Counted from the stretch's first letter, positions 68 through 22,564 are shown. The stretch: DNA of 32,000 nt from Candidatus Nanohalobium constans (GCF_009617975.1 NZ_CP040089.1:420001-452000), one strand, 5' to 3'. Translations and numbers: made by a program. Notes: generated from the sequence alone by a model not told the origin.

Positions 68-2335
68 TCACTCATTCTCAACTTCACTACTCAATCCCTG
101 CACACCGTAACTCTCAGTGTTAACCCTGATCTGATCCAAATCAGCATTACTTGGGTCAACAAAGTTTAAGGCACCGGTTCCACTAGGAGTCGACAAACGC
201 ATAAAGCTTCTATCAACATCCTGAAGATCGAACACAGGAACCTCAATACTGCCAGAAGGAGTATTCAGCTTGGTAGCTCCAAGAGGGGTAGAGATATTAG
301 GATGAATATTATCATGGAACCACCACTCATTGACACTCCCGTTCCGTGGCTGTTCAACAACCTCCCGAGTCTTCAATTCATATCGTGTAGCGTTTGGAAG
401 ACCAGTAATTGTAGCTTTTTCCGAATCAGAAGAGATAGTTTGATCGTCAGTCCAACTGGAAGCACCTGTCTGCCTGTAAAAAATCTCATATTGATCCTCA
501 AACGAAGCATTATCCGTCCAACCAAGCTCTAATTCCCCGCTACCTGTAGCTCGAGAAACCAAGTTAGTAGGAGCAGCAGGCTTAGTGTACTCATGGAGAA
601 TATCCGAGATAACCACTCTATCAAATCCATGGAAATCTGCTCCACCAAGACCACCACGACCACCTAGTCTAATTCTATTATCGGTAGAAAGGTAAGAATT
701 AGGGACTAAAGCGCTTACTTCAACCCATCCTTGCTTGTTGTACTCATGGCCATGTGCAACTATTTCTTGCCAGGAAGAGCCATCATACCAGTCTATAACA
801 GTCCACTCAGTTGAATTATCCATTGAACCTGTCGCCATCACACACTTAACGATAACATCCGATTCACCTGAAAGATCACCGAGATTCTTCTGAATCAAGT
901 TACCGTCATTATCGATATCCTGTGTCAAATCAACCCAGTAAGTACCTTGATCAGCACCACTTATACCAAGATCTCCATTTCCACTATCACTTCTTACATT
1001 CGCTCCAGTAGTAGAATCCCAATTACTCAGGTCTCCAGATTCAAAATCATCCTCAAAATAGACATTACCATTATTACCGTAGTCGAAGTGAACATTCTCA
1101 GACCCAGAGCTACCATTCCAGTATCGGATCTTAAACTGGTAACGAGCATCTTCATTCAAGGTTTCGCCCGACATATCTGCCTCTAATGTAGTATTTGTAT
1201 CTATTGTAAGAGTCTGTGTGTCACCTTTACTTGTTACATCCGTCCCCCAGAAACGCTGCCAGTTCCCGTATCCAGAACCAGTATCCTCGCGAAGAACTAA
1301 AGTAGTACTTATGCTACCTAAGCTCGCTTGATCAGTTTTATTAGTCCATTTAAATTCAAATGTATTAGCATCAGGTCTTGATACTGACGGCTTATGCGGT
1401 GGAATAGGTTCTGTGTAGACCGTCGAGGAGTATGTCCACGAAGAGTTTCCCGCACTGTTTTGAGCGCGGATACGGAACTTGAAAGAAGAGTCGATGCCGA
1501 CCACTCTATCGTAGGGTTCATCACTACTGGGAGTGTAAGCTTGCGAGTAAGATGTGGAGCCATCGTCGTTGATTAGATTAGGAGCGCCTCTCGGATTTGT
1601 ATACCCCATTCCATCACGATTAATGTCAACATTGTAATCGCCACGCTCGCCACCCCAATCATCTGGTTCATCCCAATGCACTGTGATCTGGTCATTGGCA
1701 TCGACAGTTACAGAAACATTCTGCGGTTGGGAAGGAGCACTTACACGAGGTTCATATTGGATGTAGTCTGTCCAATGATCATATGCAGCGCCACAACAAG
1801 TATTTTGATCCATTGTCTGATCGGCGATATCTTCTGGCTGATTAACATTCACTATTTCAATGCTGGTGACAGGGTTGTTTGTGTCTAAGTTGGCTGTGTA
1901 ATTCTTGACTGTTCCGGTTGACAGGTTTTCCCACCTGATATCATATGTTCCAGCACTGTAGTCGAAAGTCAAAGTTACCTCATGCCAATCATTATAATTA
2001 GAGCTTGAGTAGGCATCTACTCCTGATGAACCGTCCGTATATGTCCAGCCAGGATTAGTAGTTCCAAAACCACAAACACGGTTTCCGGAACTATCAAACA
2101 ACTGGTAAGCTGCCCCATGGCTATTACTTGTCTCCTTATAATATATTCGGAACTTGCTTATTTCTTCGCCAAAACCCCGTTCAGCCATCAAATAATTATC
2201 ATAATTAGTTCCATGGTCTCCATGCGCACTGTAAGAACCGGAATAAGAAGTAGAGTCTGTATTCAAGCCACTAACATTATTCCACTCAGCAAGATCATTA
2301 TCCTCAAAATCATCCAAAACATTACTCAGTGCCAT
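68..2335 (-). CDS. Large extracellular-type protein with two concanavalin/LamG-like modules and at least three fibronectin type III-like modules; no signal peptide of its own
   Basis: 2268-nt ORF. Two similar module starts (MALSNVLDDFEDNDLAEWNN and YFEDDFESGDLSNWDS) look like LamG/ConA-type lectin folds. FN3-like starts: PSQPQNVSVTVDANDQITVHWDEP, PHKPSVSRPDANTFEFKWTNK, PAAPTNLVSRATGSGELELGWTDNASFEDQYEIFYR. N/S/T/D-rich. The N-terminus has no hydrophobic or RR signal. Confidence 0.8.
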   Translation of the reverse strand: MALSNVLDDFEDNDLAEWNNVSGLNTDSTSYSGSYSAHGDHGTNYDNYLMAERGFGEEISKFRIYYKETSNSHGAAYQLFDSSGNRVCGFGTTNPGWTYTDGSSGVDAYSSSNYNDWHEVTLTFDYSAGTYDIRWENLSTGTVKNYTANLDTNNPVTSIEIVNVNQPEDIADQTMDQNTCCGAAYDHWTDYIQYEPRVSAPSQPQNVSVTVDANDQITVHWDEPDDWGGERGDYNVDINRDGMGYTNPRGAPNLINDDGSTSYSQAYTPSSDEPYDRVVGIDSSFKFRIRAQNSAGNSSWTYSSTVYTEPIPPHKPSVSRPDANTFEFKWTNKTDQASLGSISTTLVLREDTGSGYGNWQRFWGTDVTSKGDTQTLTIDTNTTLEADMSGETLNEDARYQFKIRYWNGSSGSENVHFDYGNNGNVYFEDDFESGDLSNWDSTTGANVRSDSGNGDLGISGADQGTYWVDLTQDIDNDGNLIQKNLGDLSGESDVIVKCVMATGSMDNSTEWTVIDWYDGSSWQEIVAHGHEYNKQGWVEVSALVPNSYLSTDNRIRLGGRGGLGGADFHGFDRVVISDILHEYTKPAAPTNLVSRATGSGELELGWTDNASFEDQYEIFYRQTGASSWTDDQTISSDSEKATITGLPNATRYELKTREVVEQPRNGSVNEWWFHDNIHPNISTPLGATKLNTPSGSIEVPVFDLQDVDRSFMRLSTPSGTGALNFVDPSNADLDQIRVNTESYGVQGLSSEVENE

Positions 2336-2349
2336 CTAAACACACTAAA

Positions 2350-2577
2350 TCAACTTAAATCTTTCCTAAACCAGATTTTGTGATTTTCAGGGTTTTGAGG
2401 ATCAGTTCGTCTCACATCAATTTCAGATAGGTCTAAATTAGTTTTTCTCTTGTTGAAGGTTTGTAGTAGTTGTTCTATCATGCCTGGGAGAGAAGATAGA
2501 GAGAGTGCTGCGGCGCCTGTACCTAAGCCGAGTACTTTCAGGAATTCTCTGCGTGAAGTCTTTTCTTCTCCCATCAT
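2350..2577 (-). CDS. Mini-protein consisting almost entirely of a twin-arginine (Tat) signal peptide plus a ~45-aa basic tail
   Basis: Near-consensus Tat motif TSRREFLKVLGLGTGAAALSLSS. A GAGGT Shine-Dalgarno-like element lies just upstream of the two tandem ATGs, and the gene starts 10 nt after the stop of the upstream gene. It cannot be joined to the downstream 755-aa ORF by one frameshift, because stops occur in both other frames between them. Confidence 0.65.
   Translation of the reverse strand: MMGEEKTSRREFLKVLGLGTGAAALSLSSLPGMIEQLLQTFNKRKTNLDLSEIDVRRTDPQNPENHKIWFRKDLS
2536..2556 (-). other. Twin-arginine motif S-R-R-E-F-L-K of the 75-aa ORF
   Basis: Direct translation of residues 8-14. 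It matches the S/T-R-R-x-F-L-K Tat consensus. Confidence 0.7.
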
Positions 2578-2587
2578 TGTACCTCTT

Positions 2588-4204
2588 TTAGTCTAAGTTT
2601 GTGCAGTATACGATTTGTCCTGTTGTGGAAGGACCGTTACTGCTGCAGTCTCTTTTGTCTAAGACTGCATTTTTGATTTCGTTTTTGTTTAAATCTAGGT
2701 TTCCGTTCGGTATTTCTATGCTGCCGCCGTTATTAAGATACATTAAATGCTCGTTTGTTCCAACTTTGTCATGGATTACTAACCTGTTATTACTACCAGT
2801 TTGATCTTCTATTCTCCAGTTTGTGCCTCCTAAATCTATGTAAGCTCCGGAGTTTAATCTCATGTTTCCACCAACATCTAACGCTGTTCCACTGACGCCC
2901 GGACTAGCTATGTCAAGATTTCCGTTGGGGACTTCGACACCCCCACTATCTGGAATGATAATTTCATCGTTTCCTGTGTTGAAATTAAAGATGGAGAGAC
3001 CATTCTTGTTGTTTGAGTAACCTAAGTTGTAGAGATCGTTACTATTTCTCTGGAAACGAATATTGACATTATTGCTTGATTCTGTGCTTTCCAGGGTTAG
3101 AGGAGTACTACTAGATTGGGTTATATCCAAATCGCCGTTCGGTATTTCTATGTTTCCTCCTGGTTTTGCTGTTAATGTGTTGGTTTCTCCGGGTTGGAGT
3201 TTGATGTTTCTTGATCCGCTGTTTGTTCCTATGTTGTATCCGTTGTCGGTGATGTTGTGGGTTGCCCAGTATGTTGATGTTGATTCTTCTGTTACCAGGA
3301 ACTTTGCGTTGGCGGCTGATGCATCGATTATATCGCCGTTTCCAGGGTTGTTTACTGTTAGTTTTCCGTTTGGTATTTCCATGTTTCCGTTTTGCCGCAT
3401 TATGAGGTTTACGTTTGTATCGTCGTAGAATCTGAAGCTTCCGTCTGTTGAGTATTCTCTTCCTATCCAGGAGTTGCCGTCTCCGTCGTTATCCATGTAT
3501 TCGATTCTGCTGGGGTTGACAAGCTGGTTTCCGTTCAGGTCTAGGTTGCCGTTTGGTATTTCTACATTTCCACCTTCTTTGAGTCTTAAAATGTCTTGGT
3601 TGTTGTTTGTGTCTATGATTTGGATGTTTTGTCCGCCTGTCATTATCTGATCTGGTGCTATTATGTTGTTTGTGCCTAGTAGGTCTATTGATCCGTTGAT
3701 GCTGTCGCCGTTTGCTCTTACGAAGTTGTTTTGTGTCCAGTTGAGGTTTGCTGCGTCTCGTGAGTTTTCCGGGTTTTTGAGGTTGGTTATTTTGTTTGTT
3801 CCCATGTTGATTGTTGTGTTGGCTTTGTTGCCTTCGTTGAGTATTTGTGAAAGGTTTTGGCTTCCTGATATTCCGTTTAACTGGTTGTCTACATAGTTTT
3901 TGGGTGCTGCGTCTGAATTGGATTGTGGTGTTGGTAGTCCTGTTATGTTGTTGCTTTTAGCGTTTAGTCTGCCGTTTAAGGTGTCTCCTTCTTTGTTGAG
4001 GTATGTGCTGTCTGCGTATCCTTTGGTCATTGGTGCTGATGTTGATCCTGGGTTGGGTAGTCCTTCGATTGTGGTTCCGTCGTTTAGTTGTATGTCTGTG
4101 TAGAATTGGACTGGGTCTGGGTCTCGGAATTCTAGGTCTGCGGCTGCTGGAACTGCTAGAAGACCGGTGATCAGGGTTAATACGAGTATTTTGTTGTTTA
4201 GCAT
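2588..4204 (-). CDS. Secreted tail-fibre-like repeat protein (Sec signal, N-terminal fibre-type motifs, five G-G-N-x-E-I-P-N-G-N-L-D repeats)
   Basis: Sec-type signal MLNNKILVLTLITGLLAVPAAA. N-terminal motifs TKGYADSTYLNKEGDTLNGRLNA, DAAPKNYVDNQL and NFVRANGDSINGSIDL resemble phage tail-fibre repeats. Five copies of GGN[VIM]E[IV]PNG[NKD]L[DT] are spaced 61-77 aa apart. The C-terminus has a Cys pair (CSSNGPSTTGQIVYC). The start overlaps the stop of the upstream pilin-like gene by 7 nt. Confidence 0.85.
   Translation of the reverse strand: MLNNKILVLTLITGLLAVPAAADLEFRDPDPVQFYTDIQLNDGTTIEGLPNPGSTSAPMTKGYADSTYLNKEGDTLNGRLNAKSNNITGLPTPQSNSDAAPKNYVDNQLNGISGSQNLSQILNEGNKANTTINMGTNKITNLKNPENSRDAANLNWTQNNFVRANGDSINGSIDLLGTNNIIAPDQIMTGGQNIQIIDTNNNQDILRLKEGGNVEIPNGNLDLNGNQLVNPSRIEYMDNDGDGNSWIGREYSTDGSFRFYDDTNVNLIMRQNGNMEIPNGKLTVNNPGNGDIIDASAANAKFLVTEESTSTYWATHNITDNGYNIGTNSGSRNIKLQPGETNTLTAKPGGNIEIPNGDLDITQSSSTPLTLESTESSNNVNIRFQRNSNDLYNLGYSNNKNGLSIFNFNTGNDEIIIPDSGGVEVPNGNLDIASPGVSGTALDVGGNMRLNSGAYIDLGGTNWRIEDQTGSNNRLVIHDKVGTNEHLMYLNNGGSIEIPNGNLDLNKNEIKNAVLDKRDCSSNGPSTTGQIVYCTNLD
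2690..3574 (-). repeat. Five dispersed copies of a ~36-nt coding repeat at 3536-3574, 3356-3391, 3122-3160, 2912-2947 and 2690-2728
   Basis: On the plus strand the copies read ccgtt[ct]ggtatttc[tc]a[tc]. The copy at 2912-2947 is more diverged (ccgttggggacttcgaca). The repeat also produces the recurring FPFGISM strings in spurious antisense ORFs of the track. Confidence 0.85.
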
Positions 4205-4977
4205 GTTTGTCCCATGCAGAGGTTGTTGTCTGGTTTTATTTCTGTAAGGTTGAGGGTTCCATCAACGGTATTGTTTTCTTCACTTACATATCCTTCGAGG
4301 CTTCCCTCTTCGACGCCGCAGTTTCCACCTATGCAACCCCATTCTACCGAGTTGGTTTCGAGGGCTCCAGTCATCTCATCTCCGCTACGGTTGACATATT
4401 CTCTTACACGGTTGTCGTCTGTTGGACCGGAGTCCCCGCAGTTTCCGCCTAGACAGATATCTGAGTTCGTAGCTCGGAATGTAGAATTTGATTCAAGGGA
4501 ACTGATTTCGCCCCCGCCGATTAACAGGTAAGGTATCTGGATGCTGTCCAGTTGTACTGGCAGCCTGATATCCGTTGTTTGCTTGATGTTAGGTACTTCT
4601 GCACGGTCGTAGACTACTGTAAATGTGAAATCGTTGCATTCTTCTGTTTTAGTTGCTCCACCTAAGTTGAATGGTTCGCTGCTTCTATAAAGTGCTTTAC
4701 TTTGATTATTGTACAGTGTTTCGTTTCCTTCTATGATTATCTGGTCGATTACTACTTCTTCTGCTACCATGCTTTGAAGGGATAATGCTAGTTCTTGGCT
4801 TGTGGTTATACCCATCTCAGAGATTTTTACATCTCTTGTGCCAAGTGATTGGGGTTCAAGGTTACATGGGTCTGGTATCTGGGTGTATACCGTGCCGCTT
4901 ATCAATGCTACTGCTACAACCATCCAACCGTAGTTTGCCAGGTATTCGATTGAGGACTGTCCTTTCCAAACTGCCAC
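4198..4977 (-). CDS. Archaeal type IV pilin-like protein (class III signal peptide, DUF361-type) with a Cys-rich, tail-fibre-motif C-terminal domain
   Basis: GTG start. N-terminus MAVWKG/QSSIEYLANYGWMVVAVALISGTVY has a K-G then Q-x-S-x-E prepilin-peptidase-type site followed by a hydrophobic helix. The C-terminal part has three C-x-G-x-x-C units (CLGGNCG, CIGGNCG, CMGQTC) and the motifs EYVNRSGDEMTGALE and GYVSEENNTVDGTLNL. Confidence 0.8.
   Translation of the reverse strand: MAVWKGQSSIEYLANYGWMVVAVALISGTVYTQIPDPCNLEPQSLGTRDVKISEMGITTSQELALSLQSMVAEEVVIDQIIIEGNETLYNNQSKALYRSSEPFNLGGATKTEECNDFTFTVVYDRAEVPNIKQTTDIRLPVQLDSIQIPYLLIGGGEISSLESNSTFRATNSDICLGGNCGDSGPTDDNRVREYVNRSGDEMTGALETNSVEWGCIGGNCGVEEGSLEGYVSEENNTVDGTLNLTEIKPDNNLCMGQTC
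4888..4977 (-). other. Class III (prepilin-like) signal peptide and hydrophobic pilin helix
   Basis: Residues 1-30 of the 259-aa ORF: short charged leader, K-G|Q-S-S-I-E, then about 20 hydrophobic residues. Confidence 0.7.
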
Positions 4978-5000
4978 AAGGTTTATTCGGTGTTATTTGG

Positions 5001-5008
5001 ATTAAAAC
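5001..5008 (-). promoter_or_regulatory. TATA-like box (GTTTTAAT on the minus strand) about 27 nt upstream of the pilin-like GTG start; putative internal promoter with a leaderless transcript
   Basis: AT-rich octamer in the 71-nt gap between the 1203-aa gene and the pilin-like gene. Its spacing matches the other putative promoters in the window. Confidence 0.4.
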
Positions 5009-5048
5009 CCATCGGTCAATAGAAAGGAAAAGAAGAATAATATAGTAG

Positions 5049-8000
5049 CTAGAACAGGTTGCTGATGCTGTCAATGATGTCTTGGAAAAGGCTGCCTAAA
5101 CTATTCGATGATGTGAATTGACCTGTTATTGTTTCGCTTGGTCCTAGTTGGATGGTTCTGCTGCCGGTGAATTCTTCTCCATCATCTGTGACTGTTGCGG
5201 TGACTGTGTATTCTCCTTCTGGCAGGATGCTGGTCCTGTAGTTTCTTACCAGTACATCGTAGATCCTCTCTGTCTCTGTGTTGCGGTAGACCTCATCGCC
5301 TTCACTGTCGATCACGCTGGTTGTTATGCTGACCTGGTTGGATGTGTCTGGTTTTTCTTCGTCCCAGAGCTTGACATCGTAGCTTATCCTCTCATCTGCG
5401 GTTGATTTGTGGAGTATTGCGACGCTGTAGTCACTTGCTCCTGTATCCTCGATATTTAGGTTCAGTGGTATGTTCAGTGTCTGGTTGTTCCACTGAAGTG
5501 TCAGGTTGCCTGTATAATTTCCAGGTACTGAGCCGTTAATCTGGAGAGGCAGGTTGTTCTCTCCTTTCTTAGCTGTGAAGTTAGCCGGTACTGACACGAT
5601 TTCGGATACATTTCCGGTTACACTTGTGGTGATGTTTGTGTCTTCCGAGACATTGAATGTCAGGTTGTAACTGTCATCTATCCCTGGTTCTATATCCAGG
5701 TCTACTTCGTTGTCTCCTGTCTGGATTCTTTCTTCAATGCTTTCTTCCTCTTCTTCATCTGTTGTGGTGAAGCTGCCTCCGAAGCCGCCTCCACCACCTC
5801 CACCGCCTCCTCCGCTGGATGAGCCGCCTGAGTCTTCATCGTCGCCGCCTCCGTCGTTGTCTGAGTTGGAGGATACTGTGATGTTGTAGCTTTGGATTGC
5901 TGTGTCTGTTCCATCTGATACTTGGATTTCGACTTTGTATTCTCCGGTGTTGCTTGGGGTCCAGGTTATCTTACCGGTGTTGTTGTTTATGCTCATGCTT
6001 TGCGGTGCAGTGTTGAGTGAGTATTCTAGTGTGTCTCCGTCTGGGTCTGTGGCTTGGGCATCGTAGGTGTATTGTTGGTTGACGGTTGCTGTTGTTTTGA
6101 AGCTGGTTGATGTGAAGCTTGGAGCGTTGTTTCCTGTTACTTCTATCCGCACTGATTCAGTTGCTGTTGATCCGTTGTCGTCTGTCAATGTCAGGGTTGC
6201 TGTGTAGTTTCCTGGTTGTGTGTATGTGTAGTTGGTTTCTATGCCGTTTGCTTTGCCTCCTTCTCCGAAGCTCCAGTTGTACTGTGTTATGCTTCCATCA
6301 GGGTCTGCACTGTTTGAAGCGTTGAAATTTACTGTTAGTGGTGCTTTTCCTTTTGTTTTATTGACTGTTATCTCTGGATGAGGGATTTGGTTTTTCGGTG
6401 CTTTGTTTACTGTCAAGCTGTAGCTTTGTGTGGTGCTGTTTGTTCCATCTGATACATTTAGTGTGACTTGGTGTGGTGAGTTATCGGCGTTGTTGTTTGT
6501 TGGTGTCCAGGTTACCTCTCCGTTTTGATTGATTGTCATGTTGGCAGGTCCTTGTTCTTTCGTGTATGTGAATGATGCTGCTCCGTTGTCGGGGTCGCTT
6601 ACGGATAGCTGGTAGTAGTACTGTGTGTATGCGTCTACAGTGGTTTGTGGGTTTGATGTGATTGTTGGCGGGTCGTTTACGGGGTTGACTGTGATTTCAA
6701 AGTTGTTGCTGGTTGTTGCGCCGTAAGGGTCTGTTGCTTGGACTGTTACTGTGCATGTTCCGTGGAAGTTGGTGTTTGGTGCGATGTCTATCTCGTTTTC
6801 ATCGATGCTGACGCCGCATTTGTCTGAGGAGACATCTATTGATACATCTAGGTTGTTGTATGTTGATTCTGCGTCGGATACGAAGTTCACTAAGTTCACA
6901 TAATCGTATTCTGTGGTGTCTTCGTCAAGTGTTACATCTGGTATTTCGGAGACTGTTGGAGCTGTATTTTTCTCAGTTACTGTGACTGTCATCGAGTCTG
7001 AGTCTGTTGCTCCTGCAGTATCGGTGGCTGTGAAGGTGATCGATTCTGTGCCTGTCCATCCACTGGTTGAAGTTATGTTTACGTCGTGTGTATCCGGATC
7101 AATGTTGACATCTAGGTTTTGGTTGTCTTCTGCTCCATTAGATGTCCAGCTAATCTCCGATGCCAGGTCTTGCTGGTCTGATACGTAATTGTCTAGGTTG
7201 ATATCGTTGTTGGTGTCTCCTTCGACTATTTTCTTGTTAGGGATATCAAGTACTTTTGGAGCAGTGTTGTTGTTCTGGATTACTACTGATTTTTGTAAAG
7301 GATCTGAGGTGGTTGATTCTATGGTTAATGAGCCGCTGCTCGTTGTATATCCAGTCTTGGAGACATTGAATGTGTAGCTGCCTTTAGTCAGTTTGGTGAT
7401 CTCTGTGTTTCCGTTGGAGTCTGTTTGATTTGTTCTATCGTTTATTTTGACTTCTGCATTGTTTACTGGGTCTCCGTTTGTGTCTACTACGTTGAATTCT
7501 ACTTTCCATTTTGGTTCTTCGGCTACATCTATTTCTAGGTTGGCAGTATCTGGAGAGGTAGGAGGGTTTTCGCCTTCTGTTTGGACTGATTCGCCGGCAA
7601 CTTCTACAGTGTATGTTCCTGCGCTCTTTGGAGTCCAGCTGAATGAGAATGATTCTGCATCCTGTTCGTTTTGGTTAGCAGGTAGTTGTTCGGTGCTGAA
7701 GTTTACTTCTTGACCGTCACTGTCTCTTACAGTGTAGTTTACATCAGTCTTCACTGCAGTTTTGTCGTAATCGTTGTCGGCGTAGTTGCTTATCTTGCTG
7801 TAAGTGAATGTCTGTTGCTGTGTTGCTTTTGGATGGTTGTCCTGTATGTCTAGGTCGTTGATTAAGGTGTAGTACTCGTTCTGCGGTCTTTCCTCGTGTA
7901 CTGTGATGGGTTCCTTGTCTGTGGAAAGTATGTTGGTGCTGCTGCACTGTGGGTCAATTACTTCGGTTGACGCTTGGACAGTGTAGTTCTCTGACTTGCT

Positions 8001-8660
8001 TGGAGTCCATCCAAACTCGACTTGGTCGGTCTCATTCATGTAGATGTTCTTCTGCTGCTCGGCAGTGTGAACAGGGTTTCCATCCGTATCAGTTACTTCT
8101 AGACTGATATTTGTATTAGCGGAGTAGTACTGATCCTTGTATGCCTCAGGTACATGATCTACAGGCCCTGCTTCCTCGAAAGCACTGGAAACCGTTGATT
8201 CTGCAGTCGCAGATACGTCTACCGTCAACGGTTCATTGGCATAAACATCGTTGGTAACTGAAAATGAATCGACTGTAGCTGAGCACTGTGAAATCTTCTC
8301 GAATTGGACATCCGTAGTGTTTCCACCGCATGATCCTGAACCACCACAGCTCCAGTCTGCGTATGCCTCTACAGGCACATATCCTGGTGATACATGGTAG
8401 ACTGCGTAGCCATGGTCTTGGAGCTCTGCGGGGTAATCGATAGTTATCTCTCCATTACTGGTGGTGCCTGAGTCCAGAATGTTTCCTCCGAAATCTCCGA
8501 CATTGCTGCAGTCGGTCGAGTTAAGGCAGTTGAACGCCATTACCTCGACATCATCGACATTATAATCATAATTTATCGTAGCCTGAGCTGCTGCAACACT
8601 TGTTAATGCAGCTGCAAACACTATCAGTAAACCTATTTTGCTGCCTATTTTTCTTTTCAT
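5049..8660 (-). CDS. Giant secreted adhesin-like protein (Sec signal; Ig/cadherin-like, carboxypeptidase-regulatory-like and PKD modules; poly-Gly/acidic hinge; C-terminal beta-rich module)
   Basis: Signal MKRKIGSKIGLLIVFAAALTSVAAAQA. PKD-like module around aa 758-841 (APLTVNFNASNSADPDGSITQYNWSFGEGG...YTYTQPGNYTATLTLTDDNG). Two He_PIG/dystroglycan-cadherin-like modules (NDPPTITSNP...VSDPDNG...TWTPT and NNAPSFTST...ATDPDGDTLEY...ITWTPS). Two NTAP-initiated Ig-like modules. CarboxypepD_reg-like segment (KVEFNVVDTNGDPVNNAEVKINDRTNQTDSNGNTEITKLTKGSYTFNVSKTGYT). Many N-x-S/T sequons. ATGA overlap with the upstream gene. Confidence 0.9.
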   Translation of the reverse strand: MKRKIGSKIGLLIVFAAALTSVAAAQATINYDYNVDDVEVMAFNCLNSTDCSNVGDFGGNILDSGTTSNGEITIDYPAELQDHGYAVYHVSPGYVPVEAYADWSCGGSGSCGGNTTDVQFEKISQCSATVDSFSVTNDVYANEPLTVDVSATAESTVSSAFEEAGPVDHVPEAYKDQYYSANTNISLEVTDTDGNPVHTAEQQKNIYMNETDQVEFGWTPSKSENYTVQASTEVIDPQCSSTNILSTDKEPITVHEERPQNEYYTLINDLDIQDNHPKATQQQTFTYSKISNYADNDYDKTAVKTDVNYTVRDSDGQEVNFSTEQLPANQNEQDAESFSFSWTPKSAGTYTVEVAGESVQTEGENPPTSPDTANLEIDVAEEPKWKVEFNVVDTNGDPVNNAEVKINDRTNQTDSNGNTEITKLTKGSYTFNVSKTGYTTSSGSLTIESTTSDPLQKSVVIQNNNTAPKVLDIPNKKIVEGDTNNDINLDNYVSDQQDLASEISWTSNGAEDNQNLDVNIDPDTHDVNITSTSGWTGTESITFTATDTAGATDSDSMTVTVTEKNTAPTVSEIPDVTLDEDTTEYDYVNLVNFVSDAESTYNNLDVSIDVSSDKCGVSIDENEIDIAPNTNFHGTCTVTVQATDPYGATTSNNFEITVNPVNDPPTITSNPQTTVDAYTQYYYQLSVSDPDNGAASFTYTKEQGPANMTINQNGEVTWTPTNNNADNSPHQVTLNVSDGTNSTTQSYSLTVNKAPKNQIPHPEITVNKTKGKAPLTVNFNASNSADPDGSITQYNWSFGEGGKANGIETNYTYTQPGNYTATLTLTDDNGSTATESVRIEVTGNNAPSFTSTSFKTTATVNQQYTYDAQATDPDGDTLEYSLNTAPQSMSINNNTGKITWTPSNTGEYKVEIQVSDGTDTAIQSYNITVSSNSDNDGGGDDEDSGGSSSGGGGGGGGGGFGGSFTTTDEEEEESIEERIQTGDNEVDLDIEPGIDDSYNLTFNVSEDTNITTSVTGNVSEIVSVPANFTAKKGENNLPLQINGSVPGNYTGNLTLQWNNQTLNIPLNLNIEDTGASDYSVAILHKSTADERISYDVKLWDEEKPDTSNQVSITTSVIDSEGDEVYRNTETERIYDVLVRNYRTSILPEGEYTVTATVTDDGEEFTGSRTIQLGPSETITGQFTSSNSLGSLFQDIIDSISNLF
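5775..5828 (-). repeat. Low-complexity hinge coding for SGGGGGGGGGGFGG, flanked by DNDGGGDDEDSGG and TTTDEEEEES
   Basis: Direct translation of aa ~945-962 of the 1203-aa ORF. The plus strand reads ccgcctccaccacctccaccgcctcctccgc. Confidence 0.8.
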
Positions 8661-10600
8661 TGTACTCCGCCTCCTCTGTCTTCTCCGCCCTGTAGACCGC
8701 CATTATCGCCGCCTCCGGAATCGTCGTCTTCATCATCGTCATTTGAACTGGATGAGATTGTGCTGCCGATTTCTTGATTGATTACTTCTGTTGGCATTTT
8801 GTCGAATGGTTTGCCTCTTTTTTCTAGGTATTCCATGATGTCGCTGAATTGCTCTTCTTTTATTTCATCTATAGGAGCTAAGTTGTCTATGAAGTTTTCT
8901 CTGGTTATTCCTAGTTCTTTGACTGGGGCTGCCGCTGCTTCTAAGTAGTCGAAGGCTTCTTCGTTTAAGTCTCTGTCTTTGAATTCGGAGCTGTCTTCCG
9001 TCATGTATTCATGGGCAATATTGTATATTGCCGTGGAGGATTCTAGAATATTGAATTTCTCTTTTCTATCTTCAAGCCGGTCATTGAATGCTTTTTCAGC
9101 AATTTTTTGGACCTTGCTGTTGTTTTCTGGGAACATCGTAGCAAGGTTGTGCATGTCTACGACCAGGTCTTCAAAGACATCTTCCCGGGAGCCTGTTAGT
9201 ATTTTCTCTACTCTTCTTCCTAAGCTGTTTTCGTTGAATAATGGATTCCTGAGGTGGTAATGGCTGTCTGAATCTTCGATTAGTTTGTTGGCGGTTTTGA
9301 AGGCTCCGTCTCTGTGGTTTTTCCAGTCTTTGAAGTCTAGAGTTGTTGTTAGAGTTCTGTCGTTTATGTCGGATCTCCTTTTTATTTTGACTTTTCCTTC
9401 ATCGGAGATTGAAATATCCTTCAAGTTGTCATCTTCGTTGAAGGCTCCGTAACTCCGCATAGGATTCATGTTATAGTTTTGTTCATTCGGACCTCTACCA
9501 AGCCCGATAATTGTATCGTTATCTACACCATCTCCTGACCAGTCGTCTTCGTATGGATTATCTGGTAGTTCGAAGCTACTTTTGTTGTCTGTTCTATGGT
9601 TCATCCATTCTACTTCGGTTTCGCTTATCTCTTGGTCCTTGTTTAGTACTCCGGCAAGGATGTATCTGGATCCATCTTGAACTGTATGATCTCCGTCTTG
9701 AATAGATTGGTCGGAGTTTTCATAGGCTAGTCCTACATCGTAGGCTTGTTCAACTATTTGGAATGCCTCAATGTTCTCTTCCTGGACACGGTTCATCAAC
9801 TGTTCGGTTTGTCCGTTTTGTACTACATCGTCGTAGATGTCGATGAACTTGCCGAACTCGAAGTCTGGTTCGTACTCTGAGCTAGTACTTGTTTCGGTGC
9901 TGACATTGTTGTCGTACCATTCGGAAGCAGTTTCCAAGTCTTTCAATGTTTCAGCTGTATCTCTAGCTTCATCTTCTGATACAGAGCTTAAAGCCCTGTA
10001 GAATTCGGTTCTAGAGTTTGAAGACGAGTGGTGCTGTTCGTTGTCGACGAGAAGGTCGGTGATATTGATTTCTCCGCTAAAGGCGTCGCTTATAGCGCCT
10101 TCATCAAGACTTGTTCCATCTTCATCAAGGTAAGTTTCATCAAAGAATCCGTCATGAATTGTTTCATACGCCTCCTGCGCGCTAAGCGCCTCCGAACCCG
10201 AATCAATGTATTCACTGCTCTCCAGAACTGTCTCATGTCCGGATTCAAAGAAATGCTCCTGAACATCATCTACGTGATCATTGTCGGAAATACTGCCAAA
10301 GAAATACTCTTCCAAGCTCCCGCTATCATAATTTAACACTAAACCATCGTCTCTACTCGTACCAACACTCCCAGTCTCATCTGCCGCAGTCTTAGGCTTC
10401 GAAGAGTTAAGATCCATCGGATCTTTGGATCCAGGCAAACCATCAGAATCATCTTGTCTCCTTCCACCTAAGTAGACTGAAATACCTGAAGCTGCGGCAA
10501 GCGCACCTACGGCTACCATAGTTCTTCTATCTATATTTATATTGGTATAACTAGATTCTCCGTTATCTTCATTTCCAGACAATGGATTTTTTGGAATCAT
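8657..10600 (-). CDS. Very acidic orphan protein with an N-terminal RR-containing hydrophobic anchor or signal; first gene of the surface cluster
   Basis: 1944-nt ORF. N-terminus NIDRRTMVAVGALAAASGISVYLGG is Tat-like or a signal anchor. The remainder is D/E/S-rich with no motif I recognise. C-terminal tail SSSSNDDDEDDDSGGGDNGGLQGGEDRGGG. The stop overlaps the next start (ATGA). Confidence 0.75.
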   Translation of the reverse strand: MIPKNPLSGNEDNGESSYTNINIDRRTMVAVGALAAASGISVYLGGRRQDDSDGLPGSKDPMDLNSSKPKTAADETGSVGTSRDDGLVLNYDSGSLEEYFFGSISDNDHVDDVQEHFFESGHETVLESSEYIDSGSEALSAQEAYETIHDGFFDETYLDEDGTSLDEGAISDAFSGEINITDLLVDNEQHHSSSNSRTEFYRALSSVSEDEARDTAETLKDLETASEWYDNNVSTETSTSSEYEPDFEFGKFIDIYDDVVQNGQTEQLMNRVQEENIEAFQIVEQAYDVGLAYENSDQSIQDGDHTVQDGSRYILAGVLNKDQEISETEVEWMNHRTDNKSSFELPDNPYEDDWSGDGVDNDTIIGLGRGPNEQNYNMNPMRSYGAFNEDDNLKDISISDEGKVKIKRRSDINDRTLTTTLDFKDWKNHRDGAFKTANKLIEDSDSHYHLRNPLFNENSLGRRVEKILTGSREDVFEDLVVDMHNLATMFPENNSKVQKIAEKAFNDRLEDRKEKFNILESSTAIYNIAHEYMTEDSSEFKDRDLNEEAFDYLEAAAAPVKELGITRENFIDNLAPIDEIKEEQFSDIMEYLEKRGKPFDKMPTEVINQEIGSTISSSSNDDDEDDDSGGGDNGGLQGGEDRGGGVQ

Positions 10601-15313: not shown

Positions 15314-15322
15314 ATCACCTCC
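15314..15322 (-). promoter_or_regulatory. Shine-Dalgarno GGAGGTGAT, 4 nt upstream of the ATG at 15309, overlapping the nrdJ TAG stop
   Basis: The minus strand reads TAGGAGGTGATTCAAATG. It is complementary to the conserved archaeal 16S 3' end (..GAUCACCUCC). Confidence 0.6.
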
Positions 15323-18255
15323 TAACATTTTGAATACCCGCATTCGGGGCACTTGTTGCATCCTTCTTGTAGGACGAGCATGCCGCCGCAGTCTGGGCAT
15401 TCTGGGTTGCCTCCGTCTTGGACGATTTTGGCTGCGTCTGCTTTTTCTTCTTGACTGGTTTTTGGCTGTGTTTCGCCCATTTGTTCCTGTTTCTGGCCGG
15501 GTGTTTCGTACTGGTCGACGGTTTGTTGGTTGCCGCTTTGTACTTGCATGTGGCGTTTCATTGCTTCTGCGATTGCGTCGGGTACGCTGTGGATCTGTGT
15601 TCCTTGGTCCCATGCGATTTGTGGGCTTCTGATGTCGTCTAGTTGTTTGATGACATCTTCTCCTTCTGCACCTGACCGTAGTGCCAGTGAGGTCATTCTT
15701 CCTAGTGCCTGTGTGAATGACTGGGTATAACCTCCGCTTTTGCCTAGGTTGGCGAATACTTCGAATGGTCCGTTGTTCTCTGAGTTGTTGATGGTGACGA
15801 AGAGGTCGCCGTAGGCTGTCTCTATTTCCTGTGTGGTTCCTTGTGCGACTTTTGGTCTTTCCTTGACGTTTTTGGATTTGCCCATTTCTGTGGCTCCGCC
15901 TTGGTCTGGGCTGTCGGCTTCTACTCCTTCCTGTGTTACTTCTTTGTCCAGGTTTTCTGTTTCTTCGTCTTGGAGTTGTACTCCTGTCTGGCTGACTACT
16001 TCTTCGAATTCGTTGGATTGTACTAGGTCTTCTGGTCCTCCGAATTCGTCGATGACTTCGGAGAGCATGTCGACTTTGTCCATGTCTGTCAAGGTGTTTT
16101 CTTTGTTGGTTTGCATGACTTGTGTGTCTCTTGTTCCGTCTCTGTAGACTGTCATGCCTTTGACTCCTTTGTCGTAGGCTCGCATGTAGGCTTCTCTGAC
16201 GTCGTCTTTCGAAGCTTCGTTTGGGAAGTTGCATGTCTTGCTGATGCCTGAGTGGTTGTGGTGCTGGAATGCTGCCTGAATATCGATGTGTTCGGCAGGG
16301 CTGACCTGGTTGGCTGTGGCGAAGATTTCTTTAACGTGTGCCGGAAGAACTTCGTCGGGAATACTTTCTACGCCTTCCCATTCGTTGTTCTCCATCTTCT
16401 CCTGTGCAGCTGCCTTGACTTCCTCTACATCTACATCGTTGGCTTCTAAAGCCCTGATGAAGTAGTCGTCGAACTCGACAAGCATGTCTTCTCCTTGGAT
16501 GTCCTTTGCGACGTTCTTGAAGTAGGCCAGGCTGAAGATCGGTTCACATCCTCCGGAGGTGTTTCCGATCATGGATGTTGTTCCGGTTGGTGCGATGGTT
16601 ACCGTGTTGTGGTTTCTCATCTTGAGGCCGTCCTCAAACTCTTGTGGATCAAGACCTCCTGTGTACTGTTTGAACCATTCCTCGTGTTCTGTCGGGTTTG
16701 CCCACTTGGATTTCTCCCATTCTGAGAATTCTCCTCTGACGTCTGCGAGTCTGTTGGATTCTTCGATTGAGAATCTTGTGATCAACCGCTGGATTTCTTT
16801 GGCGATTGCTACTGATTCGTCTGAACCGTAGCGGACTCCTAGCTGGATCAGCATCTGTGCGTATCCCATGAGTCCGAGTCCAACCTTTCTTAAGGAGCTG
16901 ACTGTTTCCTCGATCTCTTCCAGTGGGAAGTCTGACATGGTGACAACGTTGTCGAGGAACCGTAGACCTGTCTTGGCGACGTATTCGAATCTTTCCATGT
17001 CCAGTGCTTCCTGCATGTACTCCTGAACTGCTGCCTCTAGATCTGCCTGGTCGTCGAAGTTATATCTTCCGGAGTTTTCTTCCTTCCATTCTGGGAAGCT
17101 TAACGCTCTTCCATCGCCTTTGTCGTCTACTAGGACGGACAGGTTGATGTGTCCGAGGTTGCATGCCTCGTAGTTCTCCAGTGGCTGTTCTCCACAAGGG
17201 TTGGTTGCTTCGATCCGGTGCTCTGGATGCTTTTCGACGTCGAAAGAGTGCATTTCGTTGGTTTGGTCGTACATGAATAGTCCTGGTTCTCCGTTTCTCC
17301 ATGCTCCGTCGATGAGACATTCCCAGATGAATCGTGCTGGGAGTGTCATTTCTTCGCCGGGTTCGAGGTCGATGTCGTATTTCTGGACTTCGTCTCCGAA
17401 GGTTGCAGCGAAGTCTCTCCAGAAGTTATCATCCTTACCTTGGTCTGAACCTGCTGCTTCCGGGTACCATTCTTCGTCCGAGTTGTAGAACTGTGCGGTC
17501 ATCTCTGCGACTTCGAATGGTTCGTCGGTTCTTGGGTTGATTAGTGTGTATTCTTCGTCGTTTTTGACTGCGTCCATGAAGTCTTCCGTCAAGCCGACGG
17601 AGATGTTGAAGTTGGATAGGTTTCCTTCTTCTCTCTTGGCTGTCACAAAGCGAAGGATGTCAGGATGGTCTACTTTCATGATTCCCATCTGTGCTCCTCT
17701 ACGCTTCCCTCCTTGCTTGATGGTTCCACACATCGTGTCGTAAACCTGCTGGAAGCTTAGTGGGCCAGAGCTTACTCCTCCTGTACTGCTCACTCTGTCG
17801 CCTTTTGGACGCATTAGGTGGAATGGGTATCCCATGCCTCCTCCGGACTGGAAGATCTTTGCAGCGTCGTGAACTGTAGAGAAGATGCTGTCCATGTCGT
17901 CTTCTGGGTGGACGACGAAGCATGCTGAGAGCTGTTGTAGTTCTGCTCCTGCGTTCATCAGCGTTGGAGAGTTAGGCATGAATGCTAGGTTGGACATTAA
18001 ATCGAAGAATTCTTGCCAGCTCTCCTCGAAGTCTATATCATCGTATTCTTTGTCGGGTTGCGCTACATTCTTGGCTACTCGTTCGAAGAGTTCCTCTGGT
18101 TCCTCCACCGTTTCTCCTTCCTCGTTTTTGAGGAGGTATCTGGATGGCAGGATCCGTTGGTAGGCGTTTTCTGTCAGTCTTTCTTCGACTGTGTCGCCTG
18201 TTACTCTTTTTACGGGTAGTTTGAAATCTGACTTTTGTTTGACTTTGTTAGCCAT
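15322..18255 (-). CDS. nrdJ: Class II (adenosylcobalamin-dependent) ribonucleotide reductase
   Basis: 977 aa with RNR core motifs: [65 protein letters not shown] and the class II C-terminal module ([20 protein letters not shown]...). Ends with a zinc ribbon, CPDCGG...CNKCPECG. Confidence 0.95.
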
Positions 18256-18288
18256 GGTTAAACCACTTGATAATATAGGATTAAGTTA

Positions 18289-18729
18289 TTATTTTGACTT
18301 CAGAGACTCTACTTCTTCTTTAAATGATTCTGCATCTTCAAACGATTCGTATACTGATGCGAATCTGATGTAGGCTACTTCGTCTCGTGTTGAGAGTTCT
18401 TCTTTTATTTTGTTGCCTATTTCTTCTGATTCGACTTTGTTTTTGCCGCGGACCATTTTCTTGACTTCTTCGATGATTTCTTCGACTTCTTCTGCGCCTA
18501 GTGAGGTCTTGTTGGTTGCTTTTTCCAGGCCATCGCGGATTTTTTCTTCTCTGAATTTTTCCGTTTCTCCGTCTCCTTTGATGACTTGGATGTCGAGGTC
18601 GTCGGCAGTTTCATATGTTGTGAATCTTTCTCCGCAGCTCTGGCATTCTCTTCTTCTACGGACTTTTCCCTCTGATTCTCTTGAGTCCACTACTTTTGTT
18701 TTGCCGTCGCTGCAGTAGATGCATTTCAT
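18289..18729 (-). CDS. nrdR: Transcriptional repressor NrdR (zinc ribbon plus ATP-cone)
   Basis: MKCIYCSDGKTKVVDSRESEGKVRRRRECQSCGERFTTYE is the canonical NrdR N-terminus, followed by an ATP-cone (VIKGDGETEKFREEKIRDGLEKA...AYIRFASVYESF). I place the start at the ATG at 18729 rather than the track GTG at 18765. It lies 33 nt upstream of nrdJ on the same strand. Confidence 0.92.
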   Translation of the reverse strand: MKCIYCSDGKTKVVDSRESEGKVRRRRECQSCGERFTTYETADDLDIQVIKGDGETEKFREEKIRDGLEKATNKTSLGAEEVEEIIEEVKKMVRGKNKVESEEIGNKIKEELSTRDEVAYIRFASVYESFEDAESFKEEVESLKSK

Positions 18730-18761
18730 TTGGATATAGTTACCTCTGGCTGAACAATCAA

Positions 18762-18777
18762 CCACTATATGTCGTGG
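18762..18777. promoter_or_regulatory. NrdR-box-like palindrome CCACTATATGTCGTGG (proximal)
   Basis: Matches 12 of 16 positions of the bacterial NrdR-box consensus acaCwAtATaTwGtgt, including the CAC...GTG arms. It lies 33 nt upstream of the nrdR ATG. Confidence 0.55.
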
Positions 18778-21548: not shown

Positions 21549-21970
21549 TTTCTTTCCTTGATTTTTTGTTCTATTTCAGGGATGATTTCTTCGGCAAATT
21601 CTTTGATTTGTCCTGCTTCTTCCACTTTGATTTCTCTTGCTTCATATCTTGATTCGTTTCGTAACTTTCTGAATCTGTGCAGCCTGTTTACTATGGATCT
21701 GTTGAATTCTAATTCGTCTTTTGCATAAGCTATGGTGGAGACATGGTCGTTTGATTTGTATCCATCAGCAGCCATTGCTGCCTCTAAAGCCTCTCTTAAA
21801 GACTCATATATGTTTTCCAGGATTTCAAAGGCAGTGTTTTCATCTATTTTCCTGGACTTCTGGTTCTCAAGTCTTGCCTTTGATCTTTTGATAAGTCCTT
21901 TTTGCTTTGCGTAATCTTCGCTTACTTCCTCAACTCTGTCATCCTTCAATAGTTCGTTAAAATTCCTCAT
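21545..21970 (-). CDS. HEPN-domain protein (putative toxin partner of the upstream nucleotidyltransferase)
   Basis: All-helical 141 aa with an HEPN-type LHRFRKLRNESRYEAREI motif. Its ATG overlaps the stop of the MNT gene (ATGA). Confidence 0.75.
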   Translation of the reverse strand: MRNFNELLKDDRVEEVSEDYAKQKGLIKRSKARLENQKSRKIDENTAFEILENIYESLREALEAAMAADGYKSNDHVSTIAYAKDELEFNRSIVNRLHRFRKLRNESRYEAREIKVEEAGQIKEFAEEIIPEIEQKIKERN

Positions 21971-22485: not shown

Positions 22486-22531
22486 GTGTTTAATATATCA
22501 AACAAAGTTTTTAACTCTGGTGTACAGCCAG

Positions 22532-22540: not shown

Positions 22541-22564
22541 TCACAGATAGCCCACTCATCAGAT

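Follow-up and report, generated by a model that had tools for sequence, protein, structure and literature searches.

The window analysed here, a stretch of 32,000 nucleotides (nt) from Candidatus Nanohalobium constans LC1Nh, holds a block of six genes whose products have the appearance of surface proteins. The preliminary description of this stretch, made from the sequence alone, guessed that it came from a nanohaloarchaeal episymbiont and proposed that the six products make up one contact apparatus. The guess about the source was right. N. constans has been cultivated as an ectosymbiont of Halomicrobium sp. LC1Hm, a chitinolytic haloarchaeon (PMC7443923), and the window corresponds to positions 420,001–452,000 (bioRxiv 10.1101/794461) of its 973-kb chromosome. 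The proposal of a single apparatus is not supported. The block consists of three neighbouring modules, p647 with p1203, p259 with p538, and p75 with p755, and is probably a composite cell-surface adhesion locus transcribed as two units. We give a probability of about 0.55 to the reading that the second and third modules yield a pilin-anchored adhesin made from virus tail-fibre parts, with possible piggy-back export by the twin-arginine translocation (Tat) pathway. The genes, whose products are named here by their length in amino acids (aa), and the main gap between them are as follows.

8657..10600, minus strand: p647 (LC1Nh_0487), 647 aa, first gene of module 1
5049..8660, minus strand: p1203 (LC1Nh_0486), 1203 aa, second gene of module 1
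4978..5048, minus strand: intergenic gap of 71 nt, the sole sizeable one, with a T-rich tract and TTTTAAT, read from the sequence
4198..4977, minus strand: p259 (LC1Nh_0485), 259 aa, GTG start, type IV pilin-like protein
2588..4204, minus strand: p538 (LC1Nh_0484), 538 aa, phage-tail-fibre-like protein with a Sec signal
2350..2577, minus strand: p75 (LC1Nh_0483), 75 aa, small Tat-signal protein
68..2335, minus strand: p755 (LC1Nh_0482), 755 aa, signal-less, FN3-rich protein

The pilin-like protein p259 and its fibre partner

At its N-terminus (MAVWKGQSSIEYLANYGWMVVAVALISG) p259 carries a class III signal, KGQ/SSIEY (nt 4942–4965), that leads into a hydrophobic helix. There follow a beta-sandwich domain (residues ~48–145) and a Cys-rich C-domain (residues ~165–259, nt 4201–4485) with three CxGxxC motifs and two motifs of tail-fibre type (YVNRSGDEMTGAL and NNTVDGTLNL). 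The family comprises 13 proteins of 252–264 aa, 37–89% identical, and G6, Q7, E11, Y12, a YGWM stretch and seven Cys are invariant in all 13. The predicted cleavage in the family, where [K/R]-G is followed by Q-x-S-x-E and a hydrophobic helix, puts Glu at +5, and the signal appears to be of the Epd/DUF361 class III type.

A scan for the N-terminal motifs conserved in the p259 family through 185,579 species genomes, one per species, returned 39 loci, nearly all in Nanohaloarchaeota, Woesearchaeota, Micrarchaeota and Altiarchaeota, and none in Halobacteria. A type-IV-filament assembly gene is present in 20 of these 39 DPANN loci. In about 15–18 of the 39, an ATPase gene, two T2SSF platform genes and, with nothing in between, a ~145-aa paralogue of the p259 N-domain follow one another on the same strand, and this two-platform layout is that of the 'System 1' loci of methanogens and DPANN (bioRxiv 10.64898/2026.04.22.720090). 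Since this context, with paralogues beside the ATPase and platforms, is decisive, the N-terminal half of p259 can be counted among the pilins of a type IV filament system of DPANN archaea. The p259 gene itself lies away from assembly genes, and p259 is a stand-alone member of the pilin family with an added C-domain. The preliminary description had supposed that assembly genes must lie elsewhere, and the published annotation places FlaI/FlaJ genes at LC1Nh_0346-0352 and LC1Nh_1129-1132, and a VirB11-like ATPase at LC1Nh_0941. A metagenome scan with p259 alone found nothing, and a rescan with an alignment of the C-domain found three loci only.

The Epd-type System 1 pili of Methanococcus maripaludis, with their minor or accessory pilins, are the nearest described counterpart of p259. 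They are alike in their class III signal, of the KGQ/xSxEY type with Glu at +5, and the p259 N-domain paralogues adjoin an ATPase and two platform genes in the same layout (bioRxiv 10.64898/2026.04.22.720090); that system, too, has pilin genes standing apart from the assembly locus, and some of its pilin-like proteins have adhesin domains. In contrast to System 1 pilins, p259 is not matched by the pilin models of Pfam or NCBIfam, has a Cys-rich C-domain with phage-tail-fibre motifs, and is paired with a tail-fibre-like Sec protein, a Tat protein and a homologue of virus tail proteins.

The gene after p259 encodes p538, which begins with a hydrophobic signal of Sec type, as had been described for both p538 and p1203. 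This is followed by a conserved, pilin-linked N-domain (residues 23–176, nt 3677–4138) and some five (V/I)E(I/V)PNG(N/D/K)L repeats. The protein also bears phage-tail-fibre motifs, of the kinds YxNxxGDxxxGxL and 'PxxxxDAxxKxYVD'. The last 38 aa (nt 2591–2704) are common only to the 178-aa fibre of locus L048, with 68% identity. The likeness to tail fibres seen in the preliminary description was recovered with PHROGs, where the best E-value against tail-fibre families was 1.8e-5, and with tblastn, which found annotated tail fibres of Synechococcus phages (cyanophages) and Roseobacter phages at 31–39% identity and podophage tail fibres with a best E-value of 4e-8. The locus is cellular, p538 has a Sec signal, and the baseplate-anchor N-terminus of the viral proteins has been replaced. 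These features suggest that p538 works like a fibre and not as a component of a virion.

The co-occurrence of a pilin-like and a fibre-like protein, pointed out at the start for p259 and p538, extends to other genomes. When full-length relatives of p259 were fetched as DNA, a fibre gene with a Sec signal lay directly downstream, often overlapping, in all six loci; the loci are L001, L002-L005, L045/L046, L047 and L008. The first ~130–175 residues of these downstream fibres match p538, with an N-terminus of the DLEFRDPxxVxFYT type. Their distal parts are unrelated from locus to locus, with YadA_head repeats in L008, GLUG/M26-N in L047, and other repeats in L001, L002 and L045. N. constans itself has at least three paralogous modules in total, at least two besides this locus, and in one of them the published annotation shows the same arrangement: the pilin-like LC1Nh_0257, into which a PKD domain is inserted, precedes LC1Nh_0258, a fibre with CMGQYC at its C-terminal end. 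Fibres that have no adjacent p259-type pilin begin differently, with EPxHPLSxIxPxD. The constant adjacency of the pilin and the fibre N-domain, combined with a variable distal part, is the pattern expected of an anchor and an interchangeable ligand-binding partner, and the p259-type pilin would accordingly have an exchangeable tail-fibre-like partner. Between the p259 C-domain and the fibre N-domain only a 24-residue tail-fibre motif is common (hhalign probability 72%).

Two further observations concern these families. The CxGxxC motif, present in three invariant copies in the p259 C-domain, also closes many Sec fibres in the forms CMGQYC, CAGRFC, CIGDQC and CLGDNC (L001, L045, L048, LC1Nh_0258 and many metagenome homologues), perhaps as a disulfide cap or as a docking element common to both. 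There is also a larger second class of nanohaloarchaeal Sec fibres, with the N-terminus EPxHPLSxIxPxDxxLNM, that do not adjoin p259-type pilins. It is found in L048 (9229–9765 and 12288–12635) and in the proteins P0007-P0009, P0012, P0023, P0025-P0027, P0034, P0037, P0038, P0040 and P0047-P0049.

Virus tail proteins and small Tat proteins

The preliminary description missed the homology of p755, and of the p538 repeat region, to viral tail proteins. p755 consists of a variable N-terminal beta-domain, a conserved core (residues ~190–680) and a C-terminal 'connector' motif of ~70 aa (residues 681–748, nt 92–295). FN3 domains, described at the outset, were found by Pfam; a LamG-like domain was not, since neither the full protein nor two candidate sub-domains matched Laminin_G. 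The AlphaFold2 (AF2) model of p755 (pLDDT 79.7) is built of strings of FN3 domains, and a fold search returned generic FN3 strings and FN3-bearing minor-tail and host-specificity proteins of phages, nothing beyond the sequence result. The connector is disordered in this monomer model, which suggests an interface with a partner or within an oligomer.

The 73 homologues of p755 are 28–51% identical to it; many are from free-living Halobacteria, and none has a signal peptide. Identity is 40–48% over 60–90% of the length to proteins of Humcor1, CGphi46, contigs L055 and L069, and Halorubrum and Natrinema proviruses. HrrHm1_100 of Halorubrum virus Humcor1 is 40% identical at 81% coverage and is encoded by the second gene after the tape measure. 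There are further viral matches in CGphi46 and HGTV-1, and the homologue in CGphi46 (HALG_00046) stands in a matching run of gene sizes, the genes being unannotated. In the Natrinema provirus the tape measure is followed by a ~375-aa gene, the p755 homologue and a ~910-aa gene; the Halorubrum provirus has the same layout, downstream of capsid genes. As to the refuting condition raised in the preliminary description, that such clusters be common in free-living Halobacteria, relatives of p755 are common there, but in the role of provirus tail genes and not in the form of this cluster. In the window, L048 and L068, p755 and its homologues follow a small Tat-signal gene in a cellular context, unlike the viral genes.

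Contig L055 brings both proteins together. It is a haloarchaeal myovirus with 47.8% GC and a baseplate J protein 55% identical to those of HCTV-6, HRTV-11 and HSTV-2, and we would place it near the Hafunaviridae-type haloarchaeal myoviruses, an assignment of our own. Baseplate J is followed by a 652-aa tail fibre resembling p538 and then by a p755 homologue (43% identity), so that the order fibre-then-p755 exists in a halovirus. The first 113 residues of this fibre match gp31 of HSTV-2. Residues 111–556 are 26–28% identical to residues 62–511 of p538 (pairwise E about 3e-12), and over the last 90 residues the match is to the head of the fibre that adjoins the pilin in L008, at 46% identity (pairwise E 1e-17). 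Three other matches of p538 (P0024, P0028 and P0032) have an N-terminus of viral type and no signal peptide, and the gene of P0032 directly follows a Baseplate_J gene. Set against their viral counterparts, the cellular fibres have a Sec signal and a pilin-linked domain in place of the baseplate-anchor N-terminus, and a Tat-signal gene has been gained ahead of the cellular p755 homologues. The fibre proteins would then share their ancestry with the tail fibres and tail-tip proteins of Halobacteria viruses.

The likeness to haloarchaeal virus tails (those of Humcor1 and CGphi46, Graaviviridae, and the gene after baseplate J in myoviruses of the HSTV-2/HRTV-2/HCTV-6 type) thus extends to sequence, to gene order as in L055, and to the lack of a signal on p755. 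The differences are a cellular context without virion genes, a Tat-signal gene before p755, and a Sec signal and pilin-linked domain on p538. GC content also differs, being 43% here and 62–64% in most haloviruses. Among 13 IMG/VR contigs with p755 homologues, ten have 62–64% GC and the others 48–52%. The GC of the p755 gene (43.3%) is that of the genome, so any transfer must be old.

Directly ahead of p755 lies p75, with the Tat signal SRREFLK (nt 2536–2556), a conserved C-terminal motif (DPQNPENHKIWFRKDLS) and no obvious AxA cleavage site. The Tat signal had been recognized from the sequence, and NCBIfam TIGR01409 confirms it at 23.3 bits against a cut-off of 16.7; Pfam TAT_signal gave 20.4 bits, below its cut-off. 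N. constans has TatA (LC1Nh_0432) and TatC (LC1Nh_0433) according to the published annotation, and TatA was detected by proteomics. A strict regular expression for the p75 C-terminal motif, applied to viral open reading frames (ORFs), found p75 homologues only. It was considered that p75 and p755 are one gene split by a frameshift, and this was rejected: both frames between the two contain stops, there is a clean ATG, and separate p75-type genes occur in two other genomes.

A p75-type gene stands directly before a p755 homologue in three nanohaloarchaeal genomes, represented by the window, L048/L049 and L068. The order in L048/L049 is a 178-aa Sec fibre, a p75 homologue (47% identity) and a p755 homologue (50% identity), with a type IV filament assembly operon adjoining. 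In L068 a 126-aa Tat protein with the p75-type C-terminal motif (38% identity to p75) directly precedes the p755 homologue. Together with five further cases (LC1Nh_0403/0402/0401, one in L048 with 240 aa then 298 aa, L001 and L002), a small Tat protein directly before one or more signal-less proteins is seen in eight instances in five genomes or contigs. In N. constans the second instance runs LC1Nh_0404 (36% identical to p259, E 1e-55), LC1Nh_0403 (a Tat stub and paralogue of p75), the signal-less LC1Nh_0402, whose N-terminus matches the p755 connector, and the ConA-like LC1Nh_0401 to LC1Nh_0399. LC1Nh_0401 shows no signal peptide in its N-terminal sequence as far as examined, and it is enriched in the published secretome (25 vs 12 peptides), as is its neighbour LC1Nh_0400 (32 vs 7).

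The arrangement recalls Tat hitch-hikers such as the HybO-HybC hydrogenase and DmsA-DmsB of E. coli, in which a Tat-signal gene is likewise followed immediately by that of a partner lacking a signal, which has to fold before it is exported. The known hitch-hikers differ in being cofactor-containing redox enzymes; here a stub of 45–100 aa would be the carrier and a virion-type adhesin the cargo, a relationship proposed from gene adjacency.

Several side observations belong with these proteins. The connector, TPSG...PV[FY]...TPSG.G.L.LVDPS.A...V.T, ends the p755-type proteins and recurs at the N-terminus of other signal-less proteins, LC1Nh_0402 and a 395-aa protein of L001 (L001 13323–13535), and in genes 32/33 of the haloarchaeal myovirus HGTV-1. 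The longer Tat proteins of related loci (L001 11675–13306, L045 6434–7672, L048 12645–13367 and L068 1913–2293) have a charged, coiled-coil-like extension of 40–70 residues N-terminal to the twin arginine, which is unusual for Tat substrates. L069 (JGI 3300023197, GC 45.7%) contains a low-GC, myovirus-like baseplate region at 798–8746, with a p755 homologue 48% identical over residues 1–694, the N-terminal domain included; it could be a nanohaloarchaeal virus, a point of relevance to the identity of the gene's donor.

The first module, expression and the setting of the block

p647 is an acidic protein with a Tat-like twin-arginine motif, then a hydrophobic segment (residues ~25–46, nt 10463–10528; one hydrophobic 19-mer at residues 27–28) and a Gly-rich acidic C-terminal tail. 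No Pfam, PHROG, NCBIfam or viral relative was found. An exhaustive phmmer search of 1.84e9 representative proteins gave a sole homologue, P0139 (29% identity), which starts with a canonical Tat signal (TRRGILK) and a lipobox, TRRGILKTAGAAGITATLAGC. The twin-arginine anchor first described for p647 is therefore present in p647 itself as a degenerate Tat-like motif (DRRTMV), and in canonical form with a lipobox in P0139. Because of P0139, p647 is most likely Tat-targeted and membrane-anchored. The gene after P0139 encodes a large protein with a Sec signal resembling that of p1203.

In p1203 a Sec-type hydrophobic signal precedes CarboxypepD_reg, cadherin-like/Big_9, PKD and He_PIG domains, with matches above Pfam gathering thresholds. 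The E-values are 3.9e-23 for He_PIG, 2.9e-21 for PKD_4 and 5.6e-18 for Big_9, and the bit scores 82.2 (He_PIG), 75.7 (PKD_4), 69.5 (PKD) and 66.1 (Big_9). The PKD, He_PIG, cadherin-like and Ig-like domains named in the preliminary description are thus real, and with its signal peptide p1203 has the make-up of an Ig-like PKD/He_PIG adhesin. It has 31 N-x-S/T sequons and appears, as LC1Nh_0486, in the published table of PKD proteins of N. constans. Together, p647 and p1203 may form a separate unit. Two oddities of composition may be added. A run of ten glycines lies between the He_PIG domains and the C-terminal region of p1203 (~5750–5850), and p647 (C-terminus, 8660–8760) and its only homologue (L054 406–2370) both end in an acidic run and then a Gly/Pro-rich tail.

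Co-culture proteomics, with peptide counts given in the supplement of a preprint (bioRxiv 10.1101/794461), detected five of the six proteins, p75 being the exception.

p647: 23 biomass peptides, 5 secretome peptides
p1203: 21 biomass peptides, 22 secretome peptides
p259: 5 biomass peptides, 0 secretome peptides
p538: 13 biomass peptides, 8 secretome peptides
p75: 0 biomass peptides, 0 secretome peptides
p755: 24 biomass peptides, 4 secretome peptides

ORF calling over the window returned the six minus-strand ORFs exactly where they had been placed, and the junctions likewise: an ATGA overlap at 8657–8660, a 7-nt overlap at 4198–4204, and gaps of 10 nt (2578–2587), 14 nt (2336–2349) and 71 nt (4978–5048). 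The database proteins are QGA80382 and QGA80384-QGA80387 of Candidatus Nanohalobium constans LC1Nh. The published annotation starts p75 at the second ATG, giving 74 aa, and the ORF-caller form has no exact database match. In the 71-nt gap, a T-rich tract (5021–5048) comes after the p1203 stop codon, and the TATA-like box noted earlier is TTTTAAT at 5001–5007, ~27 nt upstream of the p259 GTG, a spacing that would fit an archaeal TATA box of a leaderless transcript. The gap is thus a candidate terminator and TATA box for a leaderless p259-p538-p75-p755 transcript.

No enzyme family in Pfam, PHROGs or NCBIfam is matched by the six products, which agrees with the absence of enzyme motifs and the surface-protein appearance reported at first. 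The abundance of N-x-S/T sequons, said to hold for all six, is true of the cluster average (1.78 per 100 aa, versus 0.64 elsewhere in the window), which is higher because of an N/S/T-rich composition; p75 has none, and p538 has 6 where 12.8 are expected from composition.

The rest of the window is ordinary chromosome, with genes for glucose/sorbosone dehydrogenase, CutA, a GNAT acetyltransferase, superoxide dismutase, class II ribonucleotide reductase and NrdR, a PIN-ATPase-KH protein, a HEPN/MNT pair and others. No tRNA gene was found in the 32 kb. The PIN-ATPase-KH gene (19761–21548) was considered as a pilus ATPase and rejected, its T2SSE match being weak, and is read as a common archaeal PIN-domain ATPase. 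The 977-aa class II ribonucleotide reductase, which contains a TSCPD domain, adjoins the NrdR-type repressor at 15322–18765; NrdR is mainly bacterial. A DUF389 ORF (22283–23710, TTG start) overlaps the MNT ORF (21967–22485) by ~200 nt, and its translation probably begins further downstream.

Next to fibre loci, HEPN/MNT (nucleotidyltransferase) toxin-antitoxin pairs are seen repeatedly. The window copy is at 21545–22485, and others are at L045 5640–6313, where the pair separates the fibre gene from the Tat gene, L047 8738–9404, and L068 7484–8280 and 11442–12211. The next gene downstream of p755, beyond the left edge of the window, is that of a nucleotidyltransferase, LC1Nh_0481. Such pairs may be marks of variable islands.

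A pilin-anchored adhesin and its alternatives

The mechanism we propose for modules 2 and 3 begins with class III processing of p259, after which a FlaI/FlaJ-type system encoded elsewhere, one of three in N. constans, would place it in the membrane or in a short filament. Sec would export p538, and its conserved N-terminal domain would dock on the C-domain of p259. p755, a virion-type protein, would fold in the salt-in cytoplasm as its viral relatives do, leave through TatAC bound to p75, and then join the fibre; p75 may stay in the membrane. The eight gene arrangements with a Tat protein first, and the secretome enrichment of LC1Nh_0401 and LC1Nh_0400, support this Tat route indirectly. The assembled fibre would bind the haloarchaeal host, whose surface is the most likely ligand in view of the common stock with fibres of Halobacteria viruses. 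Module 1, with a Tat-targeted, probably membrane-anchored acidic p647 and a Sec-secreted giant Ig/PKD adhesin p1203, would be best read as a separate anchored adhesin. Host-attachment machinery is our best functional guess, and we rate the locus as a type-IV-filament-associated adhesin system.

A domesticated receptor-binding cassette of host viruses is plausible, though unproven. A more specific form of this idea, which we put forward tentatively and rate below even odds, is that the symbiont took over the receptor-binding tail-fibre cassette of viruses of the host lineage, with a Sec-exported, pilin-docked fibre that has lost its baseplate anchor and a signal-less tail-tip protein that leaves the cell already folded on a small Tat stub, that the product grips haloarchaea, and that swaps of distal parts set the host range.

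Several results weigh against a pilin-anchored adhesin. The class III signal first claimed for p259 stands on its motif and its conservation in the family, and not on curated models: Class_IIIsignal, Pilin_N and the NCBIfam models gave no pilin or class III match with the full protein or its N-terminal 68 aa (E<=10 for Pfam, E<=1 for NCBIfam). The AF2 model of p259 is poor (mean pLDDT 51.7), with a beta-sandwich core (residues 48–145) at 75–82. Foldseek found nothing significant for it (best E 0.036); the archaeal pilin 8fk7_A came at rank 23 (E 0.12, TM 0.49, with this low-confidence model), and the PDB sequences gave no significant match. Neither the window nor the available part of the published annotation of N. 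constans contains a prepilin peptidase. Beside the p259 paralogue LC1Nh_0404 the Tat gene comes directly next, with no intervening fibre. The pairing of p647 with p1203 is seen on one other contig, where the likeness in the second gene is confined to the signal peptides. p755 is not enriched in the secretome and p75 went undetected, and the published secretome also holds plainly cytoplasmic proteins, so that it is a rough guide to export. Some viral contigs with p755 homologues are of low GC (45–52%); the donor could therefore be a virus of low-GC haloarchaea or of nanohaloarchaea, which weakens the step from a viral origin to the binding of a haloarchaeal host. Gene structure, protein expression, export signals, homologies and recurrent adjacency are observed directly; from these we infer the protein contacts, Tat piggy-back export, filament incorporation, host binding and anything said of a ligand.

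The alternative that survives best, though we consider it unlikely, is that these are independent surface proteins and chance neighbours, such as S-layer glycoproteins, bindosome-like proteins for the capture of polysaccharides or nutrients, or biofilm and matrix adhesins, that neither assemble nor recognize a host. Class III signals are known on proteins that form no filament, for example in the Sulfolobus bindosome (bioRxiv 10.64898/2026.04.22.720090), N. constans feeds on polysaccharides, both exogenous and derived from its host (PMC7443923), and p755 gives a weak carbohydrate-binding hint (CBM_4_9, E 0.033). Chance neighbours would, however, have to account for a p259-type pilin next to one specific fibre N-domain in six of six DNA loci with varying distal parts, and for the co-occurrence of the last 38 aa of p538 with p75/p755 in two genomes. 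Moreover, no solute-binding-protein domain was found with Pfam or NCBIfam, and the viral homologues are tail-fibre and tail-tip proteins, which bind cell surfaces.

That all six products form one dedicated cell-cell contact apparatus encoded by a single operon, as first proposed, is now improbable. The junctions are tight or overlapping, all six products are of surface-type or virion-type composition, and the five detected proteins are similar in abundance (PAI 0.8–1.25). The six genes are also the longest same-strand run among the ~30 genes of the window (------+-+-++---++--+----+--+--), in which other runs reach four; taken alone, such a run is not strong evidence of a functional unit. Against this proposal, homologues of p647 and p1203 were found beside neither pilin/fibre nor p75/p755 pairs in any fetched locus, and the contig that carries the one homologue of p647 has none of the other modules. 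The synteny comparison proposed at the outset did not find the six-gene order elsewhere. Instead, the pairs occur apart, pilin with fibre in L001, L002, L045, L047 and L008 and p75 with p755 in L048 and L068, and the 71-nt gap with its T-tract and TATA-like box interrupts the block.

Least credible of all is a decaying provirus tail remnant without cellular function, comprising p538, p75, p755 and perhaps p259: p755 and the p538 repeats do have clear homologues in haloarchaeal virus tail modules, and HEPN/MNT genes, frequent travellers with mobile islands, are near several loci, but the ORFs are intact and the proteins expressed, class III, Sec and Tat signals have been added that the viral homologues all lack, GC is fully ameliorated, the gene syntax is kept at 37–54% identity across several nanohaloarchaeal genomes among flanking housekeeping genes and three times in N. 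constans, the viral collections IMG/VR and INPHARED contain no member of the pilin family, neither Pfam nor PHROGs found capsid, portal, terminase, tape measure, baseplate or integrase genes in the window, and the published annotation has no virion gene immediately downstream, where LC1Nh_0479-0481 include a nucleotidyltransferase and a G1P thymidylyltransferase. A viral origin of the p259 pilin was likewise considered and is unsupported.

Two more known systems resemble the pilin-anchored adhesin proposed here. Pilus-tip adhesins of bacteria (PilY1/PilC) and the type IV pili of Saccharibacteria follow the same logic, in that a type-IV-filament anchor presents an adhesin, in the latter case in an ultrasmall episymbiont (PMC12206443); they have no sequence relationship to the proteins of the window, where the partner is a tail-fibre-like Sec protein and not a beta-propeller of the PilY1 type. 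The SPEARE proteins of Candidatus Nanohaloarchaeum antarcticus and the 'strain-specific PKD/LamG secreted proteins' of N. constans have likewise been proposed as host-attachment proteins of Nanohaloarchaeota. According to PMC7443923, N. constans has no SPEARE proteins, and 'eight strain-specific secreted proteins' (PKD, ConA/LamG) and pilus-like structures are named as likely factors of host interaction. Each of the nearest known systems fits in part and fails in at least one defining feature.

The accessible parts of the published N. constans text and supplements do not describe the cluster, the pilin-fibre pairing, the pairing of a small Tat protein with a signal-less one, or the halovirus homology. 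Searches of the accessible literature turned up no account of a pilin with a tail-fibre-like partner exported by Sec, of Tat stubs before virion-type proteins, or of halovirus tail genes reused in nanohaloarchaeal surface loci. A comparative study reported that no pilins could be annotated in Nanohaloarchaeota (PMC9563170). A survey of gene exchange found the viromes of haloarchaea and nanohaloarchaea to be deeply divergent, with few exchanged genes, mostly for capsid and packaging, and the passages of it that were searched do not mention the genes discussed here (bioRxiv 10.1101/2025.02.15.638363).

These findings bear on the question of how DPANN archaea recognize and hold their hosts, for which the literature on Nanohaloarchaeota lists LamG, PKD and SPEARE proteins and 'pili' without named parts. 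They name a conserved pilin-like family for the phylum, place beside that pilin a tail-fibre-like partner that appears to be interchangeable, and link the partner proteins to tail modules of haloarchaeal viruses. Since N. constans and Halomicrobium LC1Hm are in culture, it can be tested directly which of the proteins binds the host, whether distal swaps account for host specificity, and whether Tat carries virion-type proteins out of a salt-in cell. If the proposal is true, genes of host viruses have been reused by a cellular symbiont, which would find and grip haloarchaea with the molecular tools of their own viruses, and phage-like swaps of the distal parts would set its host range.

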